From: an uncultured Clostridium sp.
GTDB lineage: Bacteria > Bacillota > Clostridia > TANB77 > CAG-508
Direction: 5' to 3'
NCBI GenBank assembly: GCA_948437895.1
Contig: CAOJKK010000001.1
Location: 27,163 to 91,162 of the forward strand
Length of the DNA: 64,000 nucleotides
Shown: one piece after another, positions 28,108 through 59,032 of the stretch
How positions within the stretch are numbered: position 1 is the stretch's first letter
How the letters are laid out: each line of letters opens with the position of its first letter
Made by a program: the position numbers and the translations under genes
Notes under the pieces: model-generated
Told to the model about the DNA's origin: nothing
Database searches by the model: none
The model's input: the letters and a program-made list of their open reading frames with translations, nothing else

Positions 28108-28172
28108 ATAATCCTTTAGGACGATTCAGGACAGTCCCCTTTTGTCCTTGCTATACAAAAGAGGGACAGTCC
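28108..28172. repeat. GC-rich palindromic repeat related to family A (two direct GGACAGTCCC cores within ACGATTC...GAATCGT inverted repeat)
   Basis: Between convergent genes; shares GTCCC/GGGAC core; abuts the stop codon of the minus-strand gene. Confidence 0.55.
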
Positions 28173-28679
28173 CTAGAATCGTTTATTAATTTTACCTAAA
28201 AATTTCCCTATGTCGTCTGAATCAATTGTTCCATAATTCAAATGCATATAGTTATTGTTTTTAAAGTCAATTTGCCATTCTCCAATAAAATAGCAATCCC
28301 CTCCATTTACTTTCCTACCCAATTCTAATGTAAGAAGTCTTGGTATTCTTTTAGTTAATACCAATGCTAAACATACAGCTTGTCCATAGTCAGTTAATGG
28401 TTTAGGCATAATGAAATTAAATACTTTCATTTCATTATCTAAGATAGAGTATGATATATTAAAATCCTCTGGTTTTATTTCTCTATCTAAATCAATAATA
28501 TCTATTTCATCAGTATATTCTAATTCTAATTTTACTTCATTCCATAATTTACAAAAATACTGTTTCAGAGTTTCTGGTCCTTCATTTAATAATAAATTAG
28601 TTTTCTCCCAATCTTCGAATATTAAGTCCCTTATTTTTTCATGTGCCATAATATAATGAATACTTGATTTGTTTTCCAT
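28173..28679 (-). CDS. hypothetical protein
   Basis: 168 aa ORF, no recognisable motif. Confidence 0.4.
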   Translation of the reverse strand: MENKSSIHYIMAHEKIRDLIFEDWEKTNLLLNEGPETLKQYFCKLWNEVKLELEYTDEIDIIDLDREIKPEDFNISYSILDNEMKVFNFIMPKPLTDYGQAVCLALVLTKRIPRLLTLELGRKVNGGDCYFIGEWQIDFKNNNYMHLNYGTIDSDDIGKFLGKINKRF

Positions 28680-35289: not shown

Positions 35290-35870
35290 ATGTACAATTT
35301 AGTTTTATTTGCTTCTCGGTAATGGCACAACTCTTCAAAGTGTTATAGATAACATAGCAAATGGAACACTAAATGCAAAAATAAATTTAGTTGTTTCTGA
35401 TAATAAAGATGCATATGCACTTAAAAGAGCTGAAGAAAGTAATATTCCTACTTATATAATAGAAAATAAAACATCAGAGGAAATAGATGTAGAATTAGAA
35501 AATGTATTAAAAAAATATGATATAGATTTAATAGTTTTAGCCCGGATATTTAAAATTAATAGGAAAAAGATTAGTAAATAACTATACTATTATTAATACA
35601 CATCCATCACTTCTTCCTAAATTTGGTGGAAAAGGTATGTATGGTATGAATGTTCACAGAGCAGTCGTTGGATCTAAAGAAAAGATTAGTGGCCCTACAG
35701 TTCACTATGTAAATGATAAATATGACGAAGGAAATATAATATCACAAACAGTAGTTGAGTTAGATGAAAATGAAACTCCTGATAGTTTATCAGCTAAGGT
35801 TCAAGCTGTAGAAAAAATTCAACTTACAAAAGTTTTAAAAGAGTTTATATGTAAAAAGAACAAAGCATAA
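35290..35870 (+). pseudogene. purN: phosphoribosylglycinamide formyltransferase carrying two single-base frameshifts (near 35318 and 35565)
   Basis: MYNLVLFAS then, in shifted frame, GNGTTLQSVIDNI...; after ...LARIFKI the frame shifts again in an A-run to ...GKRLVNNYTIINTHPSLLPKFGG... All three pieces match PurN consensus. Confidence 0.7.
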
Positions 35871-35903
35871 ATTAACTGCTTTGTTCTTTTTTATTTTCTA
35901 AAC

Positions 35904-35962
35904 ATATGCATATTCTGGGACAAAATGTCCCAGTCAGAAACGTCCCTTTTGGGACATTAGTT
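35904..35962. repeat. GC-rich palindromic repeat, family A, copy 1 (TGGGACAAAATGTCCCA + GTCCCTTTTGGGAC hairpins)
   Basis: ~90% identical to 46124..46182; between convergent purN and ftsH; its terminal TTA supplies the ftsH stop codon. Confidence 0.7.
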
Positions 35963-37762
35963 AAAAATCTCTTGGAATTCGTCTCCATCGATTTTTTCTT
36001 TTTCTAATAGTCTTTCTGCTACTGCTGTTAGTTTATCCATATTGTTGCTTAAAATCTCTCTAGCTGTAGTATACGCTTTGTCAATAATTCTTTTTACTTC
36101 TTCGTCTATTAGGCTAGCTGTTTCTTCGCTATAGTCTTTTGATTGTGCTAAGTCTCTACCTAAGAATACTTCTCCTCCATCAGAACCGAATGTAATTGTT
36201 CCTACTCTTTCACTCATTCCGTATTTTGTTACCATTTCTCTTGCAATCTTTGTTGCTCTTTCGATATCATTACTTGCTCCTGTAGATATATCATCTAATG
36301 CTAAGCTTTCTGCTACTCTACCACCTAATAATGATACGATATTTTCTTCCATTTCTGATTTAGACATGAAGTTTTTATCTTCATCTGGTTTATACATTGT
36401 GTATCCACCAGCCATACCACGTGGCACTATTGATATTTGATGTACATTATCTTGTGTAGGTAAGAATCTACTTACAACAGCATGACCAGCTTCATGGAAT
36501 GCTACTAATTTATTTTCTTTTTCACTTCTTACTCTACTCTTCTTTTCTGGTCCCATTGTTACTTTTATCATTGCATCTTCAATTTCAGCCATTCCAATTT
36601 CGTTTTTATTTCTTCTTGCTGCAAGAAGTGCTGCTTCGTTTAATACATTCTCTAAATCTGCTCCAGCAAATCCTGCTGTGTTTTTTGCTATTGTTCTTAA
36701 ATCTACATCATCTGCTATTCTTTTCTTTCTGCTATGAACTTCTAATATTTCTTCTCTAGCTTTTACATCTGGTGCTGATACTACTATTTGTCTATCAAAT
36801 CTACCTGGACGTAGTAATGCTTTATCTAATACGTCTGGTCTGTTTGTTGCAGCAAGTACTATAACACCTTCATTTGTACCAAATCCGTCCATTTCAACTA
36901 ATAATTGATTTAATGTTTGTTCTCTTTCATCATGTCCTCCACCAAGTCCTGCACCTCTTTGACGTCCAACTGCATCTATCTCGTCTATAAATATTATACA
37001 AGGAGCATTTCTTTTTGCTTGTTCGAATAAATCTCTTACTCTTGATGCACCAACACCAACAAACATTTCAACGAAATCAGAACCACTTATTATAAAGAAT
37101 GGTACTCCTGCTTCTCCTGCTACTGCTTTAGCAAGTAATGTTTTACCTGTACCTGGTTGACCAACCAATAAAACACCTTTTGGAATTCTTGCACCCATAT
37201 CTGTAAACTTCTTAGGTGATTTTAAGAATTCTACTATTTCTTGTAATTCTTCTTTTTCTTCATCTACTCCAGCTACATCATTAAAAGTAATTTTAGTTTT
37301 TTCTGTTGTACCCATCATTCTTGCTCTACTTTTTCCGAATGACATAGTTTTGTTTCCAGCTCCACCTTGATTATTTCCCATAATTAAGAACCAGAATAGG
37401 AAGAAAATTATTACTATTCCAAATGGTGATAATAAACTTAATATTGTAATTATTGTTGATTGTGATTTTTCTTCTAATGTGAAGCTTCCTTCTGCTAAAT
37501 AATTACTTATTCTATCCATAAAGCTATCTACACTTGGTATATTAACTTCTTTTTCAAATTTCGGATTATCTTTTAATGTAACATATGCTTTTACACCATC
37601 TGATGTAAGCTCTATATTTTCAACTTTTCCACTTTCTATTGCAAGCATTAATTCTGAATATTTCATTTTGTTTTGAGAATTATCCATTACTGAGGATATT
37701 ACTACTATAAATATGATTCCTAAAATTAACCACATTGCTAATGTTTTCAAACTCTTCTTCAT
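35957..37762 (-). CDS. ftsH: ATP-dependent zinc metalloprotease FtsH
   Basis: N-terminal TMs, Walker [18 protein letters not shown] zinc motif. Confidence 0.95.
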
Positions 37763-37888: not shown

Positions 37889-38875
37889 TTAACCTAAAGC
37901 TATAAAAAAAATTTTCCCTTTTTTTACTAAAACTTTTAAATTTTTAATAGGGCTTAAATATTTATTACCAATATTATTATTACATAGTTCTATAATGTCA
38001 TCTATATTAACTTTTTCTATTCCTGTTGTAGATGATAAAAGTTCATTAATAGTATATAGTATAACCCTTCTTTTTATTACTAATTCTAATTTATTAAAGT
38101 CTTTTAAATTTAATACATAACTATTATTTGCTTTTTCTAATAGTAACTTATTAAATTCATTTTCTGTTACTTTATTTAAGTATTCATTCTCTTCGTTTGC
38201 AACTTCTGATAATCTATTTATTGTTTTTATTATATTAGGATTAAATTCTTGTTTTATATACGGAATAACGATATTCCTGATTTTGTTTCTTGTATAAATA
38301 TTCTCATTGTTTGATTTATCTATTCTTGGTTCTAATTTATTGGTTTTACAATACTCTTCTATTTCTTCTCTTGATGTATTTATTAATGGTCTAATATACA
38401 TGTTATCTCTTATTGCTTCAATTCCTTTTAGTCCTGAAGTTCCGCTTCCTCTTAAAATATTCATTAATATAGTTTCTACTTTATCATTATTATTATGCGC
38501 TGTTGCTATTTTATTTGAATTTGTTTTTTCTAAAATTTCATTAAAAAATTCATATCTTATTTGTCTTCCAGTTTCTTCTGTTCCTCTTTTTAAATTATTT
38601 GCAATTTCTACTACATCTATTCTTTTTATATAACATTCTATTCCTAGATTTTTGCAAAACTCTTTTACGTATTCAGTCTCTTCATCTGCTTCTTCTCTTA
38701 TCATATGATTTATATGTGCTACATAAATTTTAAAATTTAATTCATTTTTTATTTCATTTAATATATGTAATAGACAAATTGAATCTGGTCCACCAGATAC
38801 CCCTATTACTATAGAATCGTTTTCTTTTATTAGTTTATATTTTTTTATTGTATCGATTACTTGTTCTTTTAACAT
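37889..38875 (-). CDS. tilS: tRNA(Ile)-lysidine synthetase
   Basis: PP-loop VSGGPDSICLLHIL. Confidence 0.85.
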   Translation of the reverse strand: MLKEQVIDTIKKYKLIKENDSIVIGVSGGPDSICLLHILNEIKNELNFKIYVAHINHMIREEADEETEYVKEFCKNLGIECYIKRIDVVEIANNLKRGTEETGRQIRYEFFNEILEKTNSNKIATAHNNNDKVETILMNILRGSGTSGLKGIEAIRDNMYIRPLINTSREEIEEYCKTNKLEPRIDKSNNENIYTRNKIRNIVIPYIKQEFNPNIIKTINRLSEVANEENEYLNKVTENEFNKLLLEKANNSYVLNLKDFNKLELVIKRRVILYTINELLSSTTGIEKVNIDDIIELCNNNIGNKYLSPIKNLKVLVKKGKIFFIALG

Positions 38876-38895
38876 ATTTTCTCCTATTTTAATTT

Positions 38896-38917
38896 AGGGT
38901 TGCCTAAAAGCAACCCT
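38896..38917 (-). terminator. hairpin (AGGGTTGC-CTAAAA-GCAACCCT) between dnaB and tilS; possible attenuator/processing structure
   Basis: Perfect 8-bp GC-containing stem 5 nt after dnaB stop; no clear U-run. Confidence 0.3.
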
Positions 38918-38921
38918 AATA

Positions 38922-40254
38922 TTATTCTCTATATTTTTCTATATTAACAAATTTAGTATAACTTCCAAGCCACAATAATTCTACTGTTCCTGTTGATCCA
39001 CCTCTATGTTTTGCCATAATTACTTCTGCTATATTTTTCTTTTCTGAATCTGGGTTATAGTAATCATCTCTATATAAAAACATTACTATATCAGCATCTT
39101 GTTCTATCGCTCCAGATTCACGAAGGTCTGAAAGCATTGGTCTATGATCTGTTCTTTGTTCTGCAGCCCTTGATAATTGTGATAATGCAATTACTGGAAC
39201 ATCTAATTCTTTTGCTAATATTTTAAGTGATCTACTTATTTCAGAAATTTCTTGTTCACGACTAGAATTTCTTTTTCCTGTTCCTTGTATTAATTGTAAA
39301 TAATCTATTACTACAAGTCCTATATTTTTTTCCATCTTTAGTTTTCTACATTTTGCCCTTATTTCTGTAATGCTTATTCCCGGTGTATCATCAATGTATA
39401 TAGGTGCTTCTGAAAGAGGTCCTAAAGCTGTTGCAAGTTTTACCCAATCATCTTCTTCAATTTTTCCTGTTCTTATTTTATTGCTATCAACCATAGCCTC
39501 ACTGCAAAGCATTCTGTTTACAAGCTGACTCTTTGACATTTCAAGGTTAAATATTACAACTGGAACCTTTGCTTGAAGTGCTGCGTTTGTTGCTATATTT
39601 AATGCAAATGCAGATTTACCCATAGCTGGTCTTGCAGCAACTAATACTAAATCAGAATTATGAAGCCCGAGCTGTTTTATAGTCTAAATCTGCAAATCCT
39701 GTTGGAATACCTGTTATTGGCTCTTTTTGATTATATAGTTTTTCTATCTCTGCAAAGCTCTCTACCAAAATATCTTTTAATGCAGCATATCCTTTTTGAT
39801 TCTTCCCTTGTGAAATCTCGAATACCTTTTTTTCAGCTTGATCAAGAATGGCATCTAGCTCTTCCGTCTGATCATATCCTAAATCTATAAGTTCATTAGA
39901 AGCTTTTATTAATCTTCTTAAGACTGATTTCTCTTCAACTATTTTTATATATCTGTCTACATTTGCAGTTGTTGGAACTTTATCTGGTAATACTGCCAAA
40001 TATTCTAATCCTCCAACAGCTTCAAGCTTTCCTAAAGATGTTAATTCTGATTTAACTGTAATTATATCTATAGGTTCTGCTCTATTATATAAGTTTAATA
40101 TTGCTTCATATATTGTTTTATTATCTTGTCTATAGAAATCATCTGGTTTTAATACTTCAACGCTATCAATTACTGCATCCTTATCTGTAAGCATACTTCC
40201 TATTACTGCTTGTTCTGCATCAATATCATGTGGTGGTATTTTTCCTAACTCCAT
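38922..40254 (-). pseudogene. dnaB: replicative DNA helicase DnaB interrupted by a single-base frameshift near 39640 (probably a sequence error)
   Basis: ORF 39658..40254 is the DnaB N-terminal domain, ORF 38922..39623 the RecA-like C-terminal domain; the shifted frame across the gap reads [27 protein letters not shown], the DnaB Walker A region. Confidence 0.85.
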
Positions 40255-40267
40255 TTTATTCTCCTTT

Positions 40268-40352
40268 ATTTGTAAGGGGACGCATCTTTCCCCTTGGTCT
40301 CTCTATAGGGATAAGATACATCCCCATCCTTAAACCCCTAGTGATGTCAATA
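40268..40352 (-). repeat. ~85-bp structured intergenic element, family C, copy 1 (rplI-dnaB spacer)
   Basis: Near-identical to 55165..55256; contains hairpins AAGGGGA-CGCATCTT-TCCCCTT and TAAGGAT-N13-ATCCTTA plus a GTGATGTCA tail. Confidence 0.65.
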
Positions 40353-54607: not shown

Positions 54608-55150
54608 TTATTTAGACATTACCTCTTTTAAATCTTTCCAAAAATCTATTTTCTTAGTATCATCTCTAAGTAGTGCTGCTGGATGGAATGTTGGCAAATA
54701 CTTTATTCCATCTCTTTCAAACCATTTCCCTCTACTTGCTGTTATTCCATATTCTTTCCCTAGTATGTTTTTTAACGCTACACTACCTAATAGTATAATT
54801 ATTTCTGGATTTACTAATTTTATTTGGGCTTCTAAATATTCTCTGCAACAATCTGCTTCATCATACTCTGGATTTCTATTATTAGGTGGTCTGCATTTTA
54901 CTATATTTGCTATATATACTTCTTCTCTTTTTATTCCTATCCCTTGAAATGCTTTGTCCATCAACTGACCAGCTTTCCCTACAAAAGGTATTCCTTGTAT
55001 ATCTTCATCTGCTCCTGGTCCCTCGCCTATAAGCATTATTCTTGCATTCTTATTCCCTGTACCAATTACTACATTGTGTCTATTATTACACAATTTGCAT
55101 TTAGTACAATTTTTACATTCATTTTCTAACTCTTCCCATGTTTGATACAT
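54608..55150 (-). CDS. uracil-DNA glycosylase, family 4
   Basis: GEGPGADEDIQGIPFVGKAGQLM family-4 UDG motif and N-terminal Cys cluster. Confidence 0.8.
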   Translation of the reverse strand: MYQTWEELENECKNCTKCKLCNNRHNVVIGTGNKNARIMLIGEGPGADEDIQGIPFVGKAGQLMDKAFQGIGIKREEVYIANIVKCRPPNNRNPEYDEADCCREYLEAQIKLVNPEIIILLGSVALKNILGKEYGITASRGKWFERDGIKYLPTFHPAALLRDDTKKIDFWKDLKEVMSK

Positions 55151-55164
55151 ATTTTACTCCTTTT

Positions 55165-55256
55165 CTTGTAAGGGGACGCATCTTTCCCCTTGGTCTTTCT
55201 CTAAGGATAAGATACATCCCCATCCTTATCATCTGGTGATGTCAGTTTTCATATTT
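55165..55256 (-). repeat. ~90-bp structured intergenic element, family C, copy 2
   Basis: CTTGTAAGGGGACGCATCTTTCCCCTTGGTCT...GGATAAGATACATCCCCATCCTTATCATCTGGTGATGTCAGTTTTC, about 90% identical to copy 1. Confidence 0.65.
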
Positions 55257-55262
55257 TATTTA

Positions 55263-56678
55263 CTATAATAAACACATTAATGCTGTGTTTCTTCCCGCTT
55301 CTATTCCGTCTTTTCTATATGAATGGATTATATCACTATTACAAAAACTACAAATTTTACTATCAACAATGTTTTCTTCTAATATTCCTTGTTTTAATAG
55401 TAGGTTTTTATTTATTTCTACAGTATTTATGAAGTAACTATTAGTTTCTTTGTTGTATTTAATAATCTCATCTATATTATTCATAGATTTAAACTCATTA
55501 TAGAATAGGTCTCTTACATCTTTTTGAACCTCAAAATGACACTCTCTAATTGTTGGACCAATTATGCATATTATATCTTCTGTATTACAGCTATATCTCT
55601 TTTTCATAAATTCTATTGCTTTTTCTGCTATTCTCTTTACAGTTCCTTGCCATCCTGAATGAATATTTCCAATAATTCTTTTATTCTTATCAAATAAATA
55701 TATCGGCGTACAATCTGCGAATGTTAAAGATAGTATTTTATTCTTTTTGTCAGTTACCAGTCCATCTACATCTTCTAATTCTTTAGGAAATACTCCAATC
55801 TCTTCCGCTACTTCTTTCACATTGTTTGTATGTGTTTGATATGGTCTTACTATATTCTTGCTATCTAGTTTTAATAATTCACATGCTAATTTGTAATTAC
55901 TATCAAATTTTTCTTTTCCCTCTTTGTATGTGTCATTACTACCAAAATCAAGTGGCTTTAATGTAAATGCATGCGATAAAACATCACTGTATTTTAGTAA
56001 TCTTTTGAACTGCAAAATTCTTGAGTTTTCATCTTGAATTATAACTACTTCATCATTTATTATTTTACTTCCTATTATTTCTTTTATATCTTCTACTATT
56101 TTTTCTAAACTGTATTTATTATTATTTACAATTACAATATTAGAATTTTTAATATAGAAATCATTTTCAGGTTGAGCACTTATTCTATCTGTAGCACAGT
56201 CTTCATCTATATTATCCCTTAGACAAATTCTTTCCATTTTTATATCTTCATCTGCTATCACTGATATTACTATATCACACATCTCATTTAATTTACTTTC
56301 AATTAAAAGAGGTGCGTCAATTATAACTGTTTTATCTCTATTTAAACTTACTCTTTTACTTATCTCTTCTACTACATATTTGAATGTAAGTAAATTTAAC
56401 ATTTCTCTTTTTTCTTTGTCTGCAAATATTATACTTGCAAGTTTTGATTTATCTATTTCTCCGTTTTCTAATAAAATGCCTTTTCCAAACTCTTTTACTA
56501 TTTCTTTAAAATAAACTTCACCTGGCATAGACATCTCTTTTACTACTTTATCTGCATCTATAACACATGTATCAGGGTCTGTCCCTTTTGCGACATTTTG
56601 TCGCATTGGGACTGTCCCCAATGCACTGCTTATTGATGTTTTACCGCTTCCAGAGTTCCCAGTTATACCTATTATCAT
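55263..56678 (-). CDS. coaE: fused dephospho-CoA kinase / YfiH(PgeF)-family purine nucleoside phosphorylase-like protein, with a palindromic repeat inserted in frame after the P-loop
   Basis: N-terminus MIIGITGNSGSGKTS (CoaE P-loop), ...VIDADK; C-terminal half has PgeF motifs (PYQTHTNNV, LTFADCTPIYLFD, GNIHSGWQG, CSFC). Confidence 0.75.
   Translation of the reverse strand: MIIGITGNSGSGKTSISSALGTVPMRQNVAKGTDPDTCVIDADKVVKEMSMPGEVYFKEIVKEFGKGILLENGEIDKSKLASIIFADKEKREMLNLLTFKYVVEEISKRVSLNRDKTVIIDAPLLIESKLNEMCDIVISVIADEDIKMERICLRDNIDEDCATDRISAQPENDFYIKNSNIVIVNNNKYSLEKIVEDIKEIIGSKIINDEVVIIQDENSRILQFKRLLKYSDVLSHAFTLKPLDFGSNDTYKEGKEKFDSNYKLACELLKLDSKNIVRPYQTHTNNVKEVAEEIGVFPKELEDVDGLVTDKKNKILSLTFADCTPIYLFDKNKRIIGNIHSGWQGTVKRIAEKAIEFMKKRYSCNTEDIICIIGPTIRECHFEVQKDVRDLFYNEFKSMNNIDEIIKYNKETNSYFINTVEINKNLLLKQGILEENIVDSKICSFCNSDIIHSYRKDGIEAGRNTALMCLL
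56575..56622. repeat. intragenic copy of the GTCCC/GGGAC - TGCGACA/TGTCGCA palindromic element, inserted in frame in coaE
   Basis: GGGTCTGTCCCTTTTGCGACATTTTGTCGCATTGGGACTGTCCCCA; nested inverted repeats; translates to SALGTVPMRQNVAKGTDPD between the P-loop and the VIDADK motif. Confidence 0.7.
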
Positions 56679-56707
56679 AGTTACCTTCCTTTAAAATTTA
56701 AGTTTTT

Positions 56708-56765
56708 TATGACTAGATAATATCATAAAAGCAGATAATTTTCAATTAATTATCTGCTCTATATA
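56708..56765 (-). terminator. ~57-bp direct repeat copy 1 containing an 11-bp-stem terminator hairpin (AGCAGATAATT-TTCAATT-AATTATCTGCT)
   Basis: Identical apart from 2 mismatches to 58965..59020; downstream of the GNAT gene. Confidence 0.65.
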
Positions 56766-58945: not shown

Positions 58946-58964
58946 CCTTTTAATTTATGTATTG

Positions 58965-59020
58965 TATGACCAGATAATATCATAAGAGCAGATAATTTTC
59001 AATTAATTATCTGCTCTATA
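58965..59020 (-). terminator. ~57-bp direct repeat copy 2 with the same terminator hairpin
   Basis: TATGACCAGATAATATCATAAGAGCAGATAATTTTCAATTAATTATCTGCTCTATA. Confidence 0.65.
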
Positions 59021-59032
59021 TTAAGTAGTTAA

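Follow-up and report, generated by a model that had tools for sequence, protein, structure and literature searches.

A 64-kb stretch of contig CAOJKK010000001.1 from an uncultured Clostridium sp. (the whole stretch of 64,000 nt is referred to as the window) contains two short hairpin elements, one at the 3' end of ftsH and one at the 3' end of a sortase gene. We consider these two elements likely to be copies of a non-autonomous hairpin repeat family of the repetitive extragenic palindromic (REP) type, spread by a Y1 enzyme of the RAYT/TIRYT type. Both belong to a repeat, here called Family A, that predominates among the dispersed repeats in a number of low-GC Clostridia of the gut. The family is present in many copies in related genomes, flanks a transposase gene, sits at gene boundaries and provides stop codons to the genes that it adjoins.

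Two Family A copies in the window

In register, copy 1 and copy 2 are identical at 52 of 58 positions (90%), and a repeat search of the window paired the somewhat longer segments 35890–35962 and 46111–46183 (85% over 73 nt). An earlier note on this DNA had already described two elements of about 90% identity. The elements themselves were confirmed, but the coordinates given for them (35904..35962 and 46124..46182) differ in register by 1 nt, so that the literal identity is 22/59. The form that it gave for the sequence, ACAT(A/T)TGCATATT-TGGGACAAAATGTCCCA-...-GTCCCTTTT(G/A)GGACATTA, is exact and common to both copies. Each copy starts with the left module ACAT(A/T)TGCATATT, followed by a 7–8 bp hairpin, TGGGACA-AAA-TGTCCCA, and a 10-nt linker ending in GAAAC. 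After the linker comes a second hairpin, GTCCC-TTTT-(G/A)GGAC, and finally ATTA (Table 1).

The two hairpins of each copy are stable stem-loops on both strands (z −3 to −5 versus shuffles). Copy 1 folds with −23.5 kcal/mol (z −5.1) as minus-strand RNA and with −21.5 kcal/mol on the plus strand, and the corresponding values for copy 2 are −19.2 and −15.1 kcal/mol. In the minus-strand RNA of copy 1 the stem of the stop-proximal hairpin takes in the two A's of the UAA stop. Copy 2 has a G-to-A change in this stem (AGGAC), which is a mismatch on the plus strand and a U.G wobble in the minus-strand RNA.

Both copies lie between convergent genes. For copy 1 these are purN (two open reading frames (ORFs), Formyl_trans_N) on the plus strand and ftsH on the minus strand, and for copy 2 an HD-domain ORF (45221–46012) on the plus strand and the sortase gene on the minus strand. 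As claimed earlier, the terminal TTA of each element is the TAA stop of the minus-strand gene, and this turned out to be a property of the whole family. The ftsH stop has the same orthologous position as the FtsH stop in two related metagenome-assembled genomes (MAGs), MAG A (JAAWDR01) and MAG B (CAOKJC01), both low-GC Clostridia.

The terminators to the left of the copies end the convergent plus-strand genes. With a terminator to the left and the stop codon at the right end, the elements make up the first ≈55 nt of the ftsH and sortase 3' untranslated regions (UTRs). The terminator scanner called no intrinsic terminator on either element and no U-run follows either hairpin, so the elements are not terminators themselves; separate canonical terminator hairpins are found 10–25 nt beyond them. 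The scanner allows loops of 3–8 nt, and we take the 9-nt loop of the hairpin left of copy 1 as the reason why that hairpin was missed. Searching the window against Rfam gave 0 matches at the gathering threshold and, at a permissive threshold, only noise at 35800–36020, and a tRNA scan of the window found none.

The 15-mer GGGACAAAATGTCCC occurs exactly twice in the window, and six matches are found if up to three mismatches are allowed (0.46 expected). GGGAC-N1-8-GTCCC was found four times and GTCCC-N1-8-GGGAC once, where shuffles expect 0.00. A local segmental duplication including the flanking genes, which the earlier note had named as a possible source of the similarity, is out because the sequences flanking copy 1 and copy 2 are unrelated. 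The ftsH-site copy is identical in seven contigs and the sortase-site copy in two (L112 and L113; L numbers denote contigs), all from independent metagenome assemblies of the same species. This base-for-base identity shows that the window copies are not assembly artefacts. The 64 kb hold two clear Family A copies, and the short same-species contigs found via L9, the sortase, a cNMP-binding protein and the PurN fragment held no copies beyond these two. Look-ups of the exact FtsH, IspH and TilS proteins returned nothing. The further copies whose absence the earlier note had named as refuting come from related genomes.

Table 1. Positions of the Family A copies, their parts and other repeat features in the window.
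Feature	Position	Strand	Details
Family A copy 1	35902..35959	+	left module ACATATGCATATT, hairpin 1, linker AGTCAGAAAC, hairpin 2, terminal TTA
Copy 1 hairpin CTGGGACA-AAA-TGTCCCAG	35915..35933	both	8-bp stem; folding
Copy 1 stop-proximal hairpin	35939..35958	-	plus strand 5 bp (GTCCC/GGGAC); minus-strand RNA 8 bp (AAUGUCCC/GGGACGUU)
ftsH TAA stop (terminal TTA of copy 1)	35957..35959	-	ORF 35957-37762; Pfam Peptidase_M41, AAA and FtsH_ext
Bidirectional terminator-like hairpin (AAAAAGAACAAAGCA / TGCTTTGTTCTTTTT) left of copy 1	35853..35891		read by eye; purN stop in loop
Family A copy 2	46123..46180	+	repeat pairing and profile match
Copy 2 hairpin TGGGACA-AAA-TGTCCCA	46137..46153		folding
Copy 2 stop-proximal hairpin	46160..46179	-	folding
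Sortase gene TAA stop (terminal TTA of copy 2)	46178..46180	-	ORF 46178-46912; Pfam Sortase
Bidirectional intrinsic terminator directly left of copy 2	46079..46112		scanner: 15-bp stem, T-runs on both strands
Long single hairpin of inverted GGGACAGTCCC units	28119..28184		30 bp; −32 kcal/mol, z −5.7
Intragenic in-frame hairpin repeat (GGGGACAGTCCC..GCGACAAAATGTCGC..GGGAC)	56574..56625	-	inside CoaE domain of ORF 55263-56678

Family A in related genomes and its gene boundaries

Family A was searched for with the pattern GGGACAAAATGTCCC-N4-14-GTCCC, using one genome per species. This gave 96 loci, most of them in MAGs A and B, a few in three other Clostridia MAGs and 16 in Collinsella tanakaei (63% GC). 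An nhmmer profile built from 78 copies of the related genomes puts the number of copies at 41 or more for MAG A and 37 or more for MAG B. The same profile matches both window copies, at 35914–35959 (E = 6.3e-13) and at 46136–46180 (E = 9.5e-13). The window species is a more distant relative, with ftsH DNA ≈75% identical to that of MAGs A and B. The consensus was unmatched among the PLSDB plasmids, while a scan of viral contigs gave six matches, mostly iteron-like ATGTCCC arrays in unrelated GC-rich contigs. Two JGI metagenome scans, neither of which contains the window species, gave 0 and 2 matches, one of the latter being a 46% GC tandem variant.

The Clostridia consensus reads (TA)AGATGT-GTCCCCAATGGGAC-AAAAT-GTCCC-AAACAGAAAC-GTCCCCAATGGGAC-ATTA, with AAA(A/C)AGAAAC in the linker region. 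It is built of two equally oriented hairpins with a palindrome in the center, and can gain or lose a 34-nt unit. In the window copies a different left module replaces the first hairpin arm of the consensus. A second module of ≈50 nt, TAAGATAGCCGTTCGAGCAAAGCGAGTTACGGATATCTTATGCAGAGC, with an 11-bp stem, was seen in MAG B (L007, L023, L064, L081, L101, and L074), where it either replaces the left arm of Family A or sits in a hairpin loop. The 3' part of this module (TTATGCAGAGC-TGGGAC) resembles the left module of the window copies (ATATGCATATTC-TGGGAC).

The Collinsella version has the same GTCCC/GGGAC framework, with ACAAAATGT in the center and a GC-rich linker. By eye, the base of the central hairpin shows a compensatory change from T-A to G-C between Clostridia and Collinsella. 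In C. tanakaei the GC-rich version CCTGTCCCAAATGGGGACAAAATGTCCCCTGGCACCCCCGTCCCCAGAGAGGACA is multi-copy (L015, L017, L020, L037, L039, L050, L051, L053, L058, L079, and L099). The presence of a Collinsella version beside a Y1 transposase gene suggests cross-phylum spread among gut bacteria.

The right end of the element (...GGGACA|) meets the stop of a convergent ORF as the next triplet in 10 of 41 copies in MAG A and 10 of 37 in MAG B. The stop triplet is usually TTA, once TCA and once CTA. As the terminal TTA is kept also in copies without an adjoining gene end, it belongs to the element. In 8/41 copies of MAG A and 4/37 of MAG B the convergent ORF instead stops 11 nt inside the element. 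All 12 of these copies carry the loop variant CCCTA in place of CCCCA, which creates an in-frame TAG; internal stops are seen in 8/8 copies with the variant versus 0/33 without it in MAG A (p = 1e-8), and in 4/6 versus 0/31 in MAG B (p = 2e-4). In the orthologous pair L030/L033 one species stops at the internal TAG and the other at the terminal TAA. Rarely, the ORF runs 15 codons into the element or clean through it, and in-frame intragenic copies add 12–20 residues to the protein (the CoaE gene of the window, L035, and L049).

Another type of right end, found in about 25 copies, has GGAGG within 0–8 nt and an ATG at +10 to +24. At the left end, upstream stops are 0–9 nt away in about a dozen copies and divergent starts 17–47 nt away. 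In the relatives the element is equally common inside operons, occurs in both orientations to transcription and is also found directly upstream of Shine-Dalgarno sequences, while copies between divergent genes are rare. The position between convergent genes, to which attention had been drawn before, thus holds for both window copies but is not a defining trait of the family.

An associated Y1/HUH transposase and comparison with known systems

The first lead to a transposase came from tblastn with approximate IS200, IS608 and E. coli RAYT queries, which gave weak matches only. The ORF concerned (L019 6878–7666, MAG A) encodes 262 aa with a Pfam Y1_Tnp domain (E = 1.5e-17). Its best NCBIfam match is the REP-associated tyrosine transposase (NF047646), with 69 bits versus 20 bits for IS200; the scores obtained for the enzyme were 69.4 and 63 bits, those for IS200 20–24 bits. 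All 24 homologs keep the HUH motif (NHVHLVI) and the catalytic Tyr motif (RYIHQNP) unchanged. The AlphaFold model of the protein (pLDDT 83.7) has an all-helical C-terminal half, and its best fold match in the PDB (E = 1.1e-5, TMt 0.67) is 4er8, a complex of E. coli TnpA-REP with a REP hairpin. The transposases of IS608, ISDra2 and IS200 match less well. The proteins are 259–289 aa long and their sole C-terminal Pfam match, HTH_26, is below the cut-off (E = 0.0038).

The transposase gene is single-copy and flanked on both sides by inverted Family A elements in six genomes (L019, L080, L105, L106, L107, and L108), namely MAGs A and B and four others with proteins 59–69% identical. The gene order mreB / radical-SAM / small ORF / transposase / radA / disA is conserved in all six. 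A single copy, conserved synteny and inverted cognate repeats on both sides are the features which define REPtrons and TIRtrons, and the REP-like nature proposed in the earlier note is thus borne out by the copy number in relatives, by this flanking arrangement and by the REP-associated best matches of the enzyme. The split radA of MAG A was considered as a candidate intragenic insertion and rejected, as it has two frameshifts and no element.

A homolog search returned 3,516 proteins. Most clusters are found on one to a few contigs, many of which are ≈1 kb, a length to be expected if repeats enclose the gene on both sides. Assemblies of related MAGs seem to break off at Family A elements, and many transposase homologs are present only on such ≈1-kb contigs. 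The Collinsella homolog (36% identical) adjoins a tandem pair of Collinsella-type copies (L053). In MAG C the homolog (52% identical) is flanked by inverted arrays of another palindromic repeat, GGACCTGGTCC, that include GGGACCAAACGGACC units (L063 3150–3430 and 4280–4440), which suggests that the cognate repeat family has been swapped in that lineage.

The closest known system is the TIRtron, because GGGGACAC is found at the left end of Family A (bottom strand) and because the transposase is long with a helical C-terminal half. According to Di Nocera et al. (2013; PMC3733652), TIRYT genes are RAYT-like and flanked by inverted repeats which share GGGGWSAS and sometimes form moderately abundant families. 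TIRYTs correspond to TnpA-REP subclass 2.1, described as long proteins with a C-terminal helix-turn-helix (HTH) and with “no REP-like sequences” nearby (Quentin et al., 2018; PMC6006769). Family A shares with TIRtrons a single-copy RAYT-like Y1/HUH gene that is longer than classical RAYTs and has an extra helical C-terminal region, as well as a flanking repeat which is also dispersed through the genome as a family. The left end of the consensus on the bottom strand, ATTGGGGACACATCT, matches GGGGWSAS as this motif is given in the two papers (PMC3733652, PMC6006769), while the window copies lack this arm.

Several features set Family A apart from TIRtrons. The TIRtron hosts named in the accessible part of PMC3733652 include Stenotrophomonas, Koribacter and Pseudomonas, with “moderately abundant” repeats, and the same text does not mention Firmicutes, Clostridia or Actinobacteria. 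Family A consists of short self-complementary REP-like hairpins and is dominant in low-GC Clostridia MAGs and also present in Collinsella. It adjoins a transposase gene, whereas Quentin et al. report no REP-like sequences beside subclass 2.1 genes (PMC6006769). The TIRtron HTH domains are Bac_DnaA_C, HTH_23 or HTH_28, while the Family A enzyme shows only the weak HTH_26.

Family A resembles the REPtrons of Escherichia and Pseudomonas in its high-copy short hairpins near 3' ends, between convergent or co-directional genes, and in its vertically inherited single-copy cognate Y1 transposase flanked by inverted copies. The best fold match is to a REPtron enzyme, E. coli TnpA-REP (4er8), and in both systems the cognate palindromes differ between lineages. 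Unlike in REPtrons, the feet of the hairpins lack the GTAG tag, being AGATGT|GTCCC and GAAAC|GTCCC in the consensus and ATATTC|TGGGAC and GAAAC|GTCCC in the window. The hairpin units are also arranged head-to-tail with a direct 34-nt unit that expands and contracts, instead of forming inverted REPIN doublets, and the hosts are Bacillota and Actinomycetota.

Di Nocera et al. (2013; PMC3733652) describe REPs as lying mostly no more than 20 bp from 3' ends, between ORFs that are convergent or unidirectional. They state that GTAG REP termini “often provide the stop codon” and that REPs may be located in frame within genes. Family A is like the GTAG REPs and the Rickettsia palindromic elements (RPEs) of that text in that its terminus is read as the stop of the abutting ORF and in that in-frame copies exist. 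It differs from the GTAG REPs in providing TAA from the terminal TTA and, in another frame, TAG from the loop variant, and in that some copies abut a Shine-Dalgarno sequence, one of them having arrived together with it in an empty/filled comparison. Stop donation, 3'-end placement and in-frame copies are thus already described for REPs, and it is the family and its hosts that are new.

As far as their available descriptions go, the CGTC REPs (CGTC-1 to -4, including Neisseria dRS3 and Rickettsia RPE-4/-6) share with Family A a CGTC/TGTC before the hairpin units (AAACGTCCC, TGTGTCCC), 4-nt loops and, on the bottom strand, an 8-bp stem starting with two A-T pairs. By the same descriptions alone they can be told apart, as the CGTC of Family A lies inside the stem and is not an unpaired tag, and Family A has no CCA tail. 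They are also reported there without a dedicated transposase, whereas Family A flanks one. From IS200/IS605-derived (PATE-like) elements Family A differs in having no replication-strand bias, as judged by proxies.

One RAYT group is also found in Clostridia (Bertels et al., 2017; PMC5581495). The available text of PMC3733652 and PMC6006769 describes no family of REP-like repeats from Firmicutes. To our knowledge, work on REP/RAYT systems has dealt almost exclusively with Proteobacteria. With its syntenic Y1 gene in gut Clostridia and its recurrence in Collinsella, the family would extend the known host range of long-lived intragenomic replicators and provide a natural substrate on which the action of TIRYT-type enzymes can be studied. 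On a more tentative reading, in which the cognate enzyme is the subclass 2.1 (TIRYT) Y1 transposase fixed upstream of radA, no high-copy population of REP-like repeats would have been linked to this subclass before, and Family A would also be the first REP/RAYT-type system characterized in Gram-positive gut bacteria (Clostridia, Collinsella). For the annotation of these genomes, C-termini, stop codons and ribosome-binding sites can be expected to come from repeats.

Movement, alternative explanations and other repeats in the window

Comparison of orthologous sites points to movement. At the ftsH 3' site the window has an element, MAG A has a diverged one and MAG B has none. At the sortase 3' site only the window has an element, the orthologs in MAGs A and B having none after the stop. 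An empty site could be identified in MAG C, where two genes overlap by stop and start (TAATG) and the junction reads ...TTATTAATG... The same junction is filled in MAGs A and B, reading TTATTA|element-(T/C)GGAGGAAAA-TTA|ATG. The insertion at this junction comprises the element with a new Shine-Dalgarno sequence and spacer, and has TTA on both sides. Other orthologous sites differ by exactly one 34-nt unit, giving a solo hairpin, the standard form or a doubled form. The left-flank triplet is TTA, CTA or TCA in 22/74 copies versus 7% in the background.

In the reading that we favor, the elements would be recognized as single-stranded DNA hairpins by a domesticated, single-copy Y1/HUH tyrosine transposase, and they would be mobilized by the RAYT/TIRYT-type enzyme which is encoded upstream of radA between inverted copies in the relatives. 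The element ends in TTA, and copies would survive only where the genes stay undamaged, so that the surviving copies would sit exactly at gene boundaries. Each window copy may have landed at the stop of the minus-strand gene, its own TTA now being read as TAA. The remainder of the element would then have become the start of the 3' UTR, over a length of 55 nt, and would precede a bidirectional terminator that was already there.

The transcript is predicted to fold into two stable hairpins, the first of which would take in the two A's of the stop codon. An influence on 3'-end stability or termination efficiency is probable, as for E. coli REPs. In E. coli, REPs no more than ≈15 nt away from a stop codon are reported to stall terminating ribosomes and to lower expression (Liang, Rudd and Deutscher, Mol Cell 2015). 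For a hairpin beginning inside the stop codon, ribosome stalling near the stop would be the most likely kind of effect at the RNA level.

A further idea, which we put forward tentatively and with more doubt than conviction, is that the family constitutes a transposable gene-boundary module. One end would carry either stops in two frames (the terminal TTA and the CTA variant of the loop) or a ready-made Shine-Dalgarno sequence with spacer. Such a module might insert in the tightest junctions of compact genomes, even between overlapping stop and start codons, killing neither gene and uncoupling translationally coupled genes.

A number of observations weigh against a REP-type family spread by this enzyme. 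The window copies lack the left hairpin arm bearing GGGGACAC, and the family has neither the canonical GTAG tag nor the REPIN layout of inverted doublets. No transposase gene was found within the 64-kb window, and the system may be inactive or lost in this genome. Short-read assemblies read straight through the window copies, which suggests a low copy number in the window species. The NF047646 scores fall under the curated cut-off of 80, and phmmer of the transposase against PDB sequences returned no relative. The association between element and transposase appears in genome sequences as a correlation. No orientation bias was seen relative to the gene-strand majority (44 vs 40) or the sign of the GC skew (24/24 and 16/20), both used as proxies for replication strand, which differs from the lagging-strand targeting of the IS608 type. 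An old stop triplet at the left edge, predicted by a model of insertion just inside the stop codon, is of weak significance (10/19 vs 12/55, p = 0.02 pooled, with orthologs that are not independent).

The twin hairpin could also be an RNA element selected by the host, kept for mRNA stabilization, end protection or termination tuning, with an incidental link to the transposase. Both window copies occupy transcribed sequence, with the stop codon on one side and the terminator on the other, their mRNA-sense strands have the lower folding energies given above, and the stem substitution of copy 2 is preserved as a wobble on the mRNA strand only. Copies are rare between divergent genes, and the window copies are fixed and identical in seven and two independent samples. 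Yet the two orientations to the transcript are about equally common in the relatives, copies are found in frame inside coding sequence, and at essential genes the presence of the element varies between close lineages. The elements also flank the transposase gene in six genomes, match no Rfam family and, lacking a U-run after either hairpin, are no terminators by themselves. As a replacement for a mobile origin we regard host selection as rather unlikely, but such a role could be true in addition to it.

Still less probable is that Family A is a miniature inverted-repeat transposable element (MITE) that duplicates TA or TTA and is moved by a DDE transposase (IS630/Tc1-like, as for RUP or Correia), the flanking TTA being a target-site duplication. 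Many copies read TTA|AGATG...GGGACA|TTA, the ends show an imperfect inverted TGTCCC/GGGACA, and the left-flank triplets and the two TTAs at the filled site of MAGs A and B mentioned above would fit as well. However, TTA or TA is found at both flanks only in a minority of copies, the left flank is mostly not TTA, and copies of the Shine-Dalgarno type lack the TA on the right. The two hairpin units are direct and not inverted repeats. No insertion sequence with matching ends was noticed in ≈700 kb of loci, though no systematic search was made, and the Y1 enzyme is the only transposase that consistently adjoins the elements.

That the similarity is due to chance or to a local segmental duplication, or that the elements are operator sites for a protein, is hardly credible. 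In favor of such readings, the window has just two clear copies, the central 15-mer comes close to a perfect palindrome of the type used by dimeric DNA-binding proteins, and some phage contigs carry iteron-like ATGTCCC arrays. Chance and duplication are already refuted, however, by the shuffle expectation of 0, the unrelated flanks and well over a hundred copies in other genomes, and a position downstream of genes and behind terminators is the wrong one for an operator.

Two other hairpin repeats of the window are related to Family A in motif or sequence. A third, diverged relative had been proposed at 28108..28172, and the site does have the placement ascribed to it (terminator, repeat, gene stop), the TAG stop (CTA 28173–28175) of ORF 28173–28679 overlapping the last GTCCC of the long hairpin and a terminator lying on the other side. 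The site gave no match to the family profile at E ≤ 1, so that it is not demonstrably a member, and the ORF has no Pfam match. It shares only the GGGAC/GTCCC motif vocabulary with Family A. GGGACAGTCCC-type units are combined with Family A units in MAG D (L043).

The in-frame repeat in the CoaE domain matches the profile weakly (E = 0.014), folds with −26 kcal/mol (z −5.0) and encodes a 12-residue insertion relative to the solved CoaE structures 2if2 and 6n39. Its GCGACAAAATGTCGC is, by eye, a compensated version of the central palindrome of the family, with GGGAC/GTCCC changed to GCGAC/GTCGC. The ORF itself (55263–56678, minus strand) is a CoaE (dephospho-CoA kinase) fused to a YfiH/Cu-oxidase_4 domain.

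An 81-nt repeat (90% identical, 40252–40332 and 55148–55228) immediately precedes the Shine-Dalgarno sequence in two places, once at dnaB and once at a uracil-DNA glycosylase gene. It contains GGGGA/TCCCC hairpins and a AAGATGCGTCCCC segment resembling the left end of Family A. At the orthologous uracil-DNA glycosylase site MAGs A and B have a Family A element. An insertion of ≈88 nt before dnaB is absent from the same-species contigs L109 and L110 and present in L111, and must therefore be polymorphic and recently mobile.

The dnaB gene (38922–40254, minus strand), which is normally essential, is split by a 1-nt frame change at ≈39655–39665 into an ORF for the DnaB N-domain (39658–40254) and one for DnaB_C (38922–39623). 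The split ORFs were also called in the three independent Logan contigs L109–L111. Between dnaB and tilS, L109 (4805–5474) and L110 (3406–4075) carry a nucleotidyltransferase / NTase-substrate-binding gene pair which is absent from the window (38875–38922). The purN gene (Formyl_trans_N, 35309–35870, plus strand) is likewise split, by a frameshift near 35560–35580, into ORFs of 90 and 77 aa. As this split recurs in seven independent short-read assemblies of the window species it is not an assembly error, and it is either a pseudogene or a recoding site.

Two further repeats were seen in the window. A 70-nt direct repeat (93% identical, 56695–56764 and 58952–59021) lies upstream of two minus-strand genes and contains a terminator-like hairpin, AGCAGATAATT...AATTATCTGCT. 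Between 10800 and 12680 there are four copies of a 226-nt unit (61–85% identical, with spacings of 422, 384 and 849 nt), which is probably a run of paralogous small genes.

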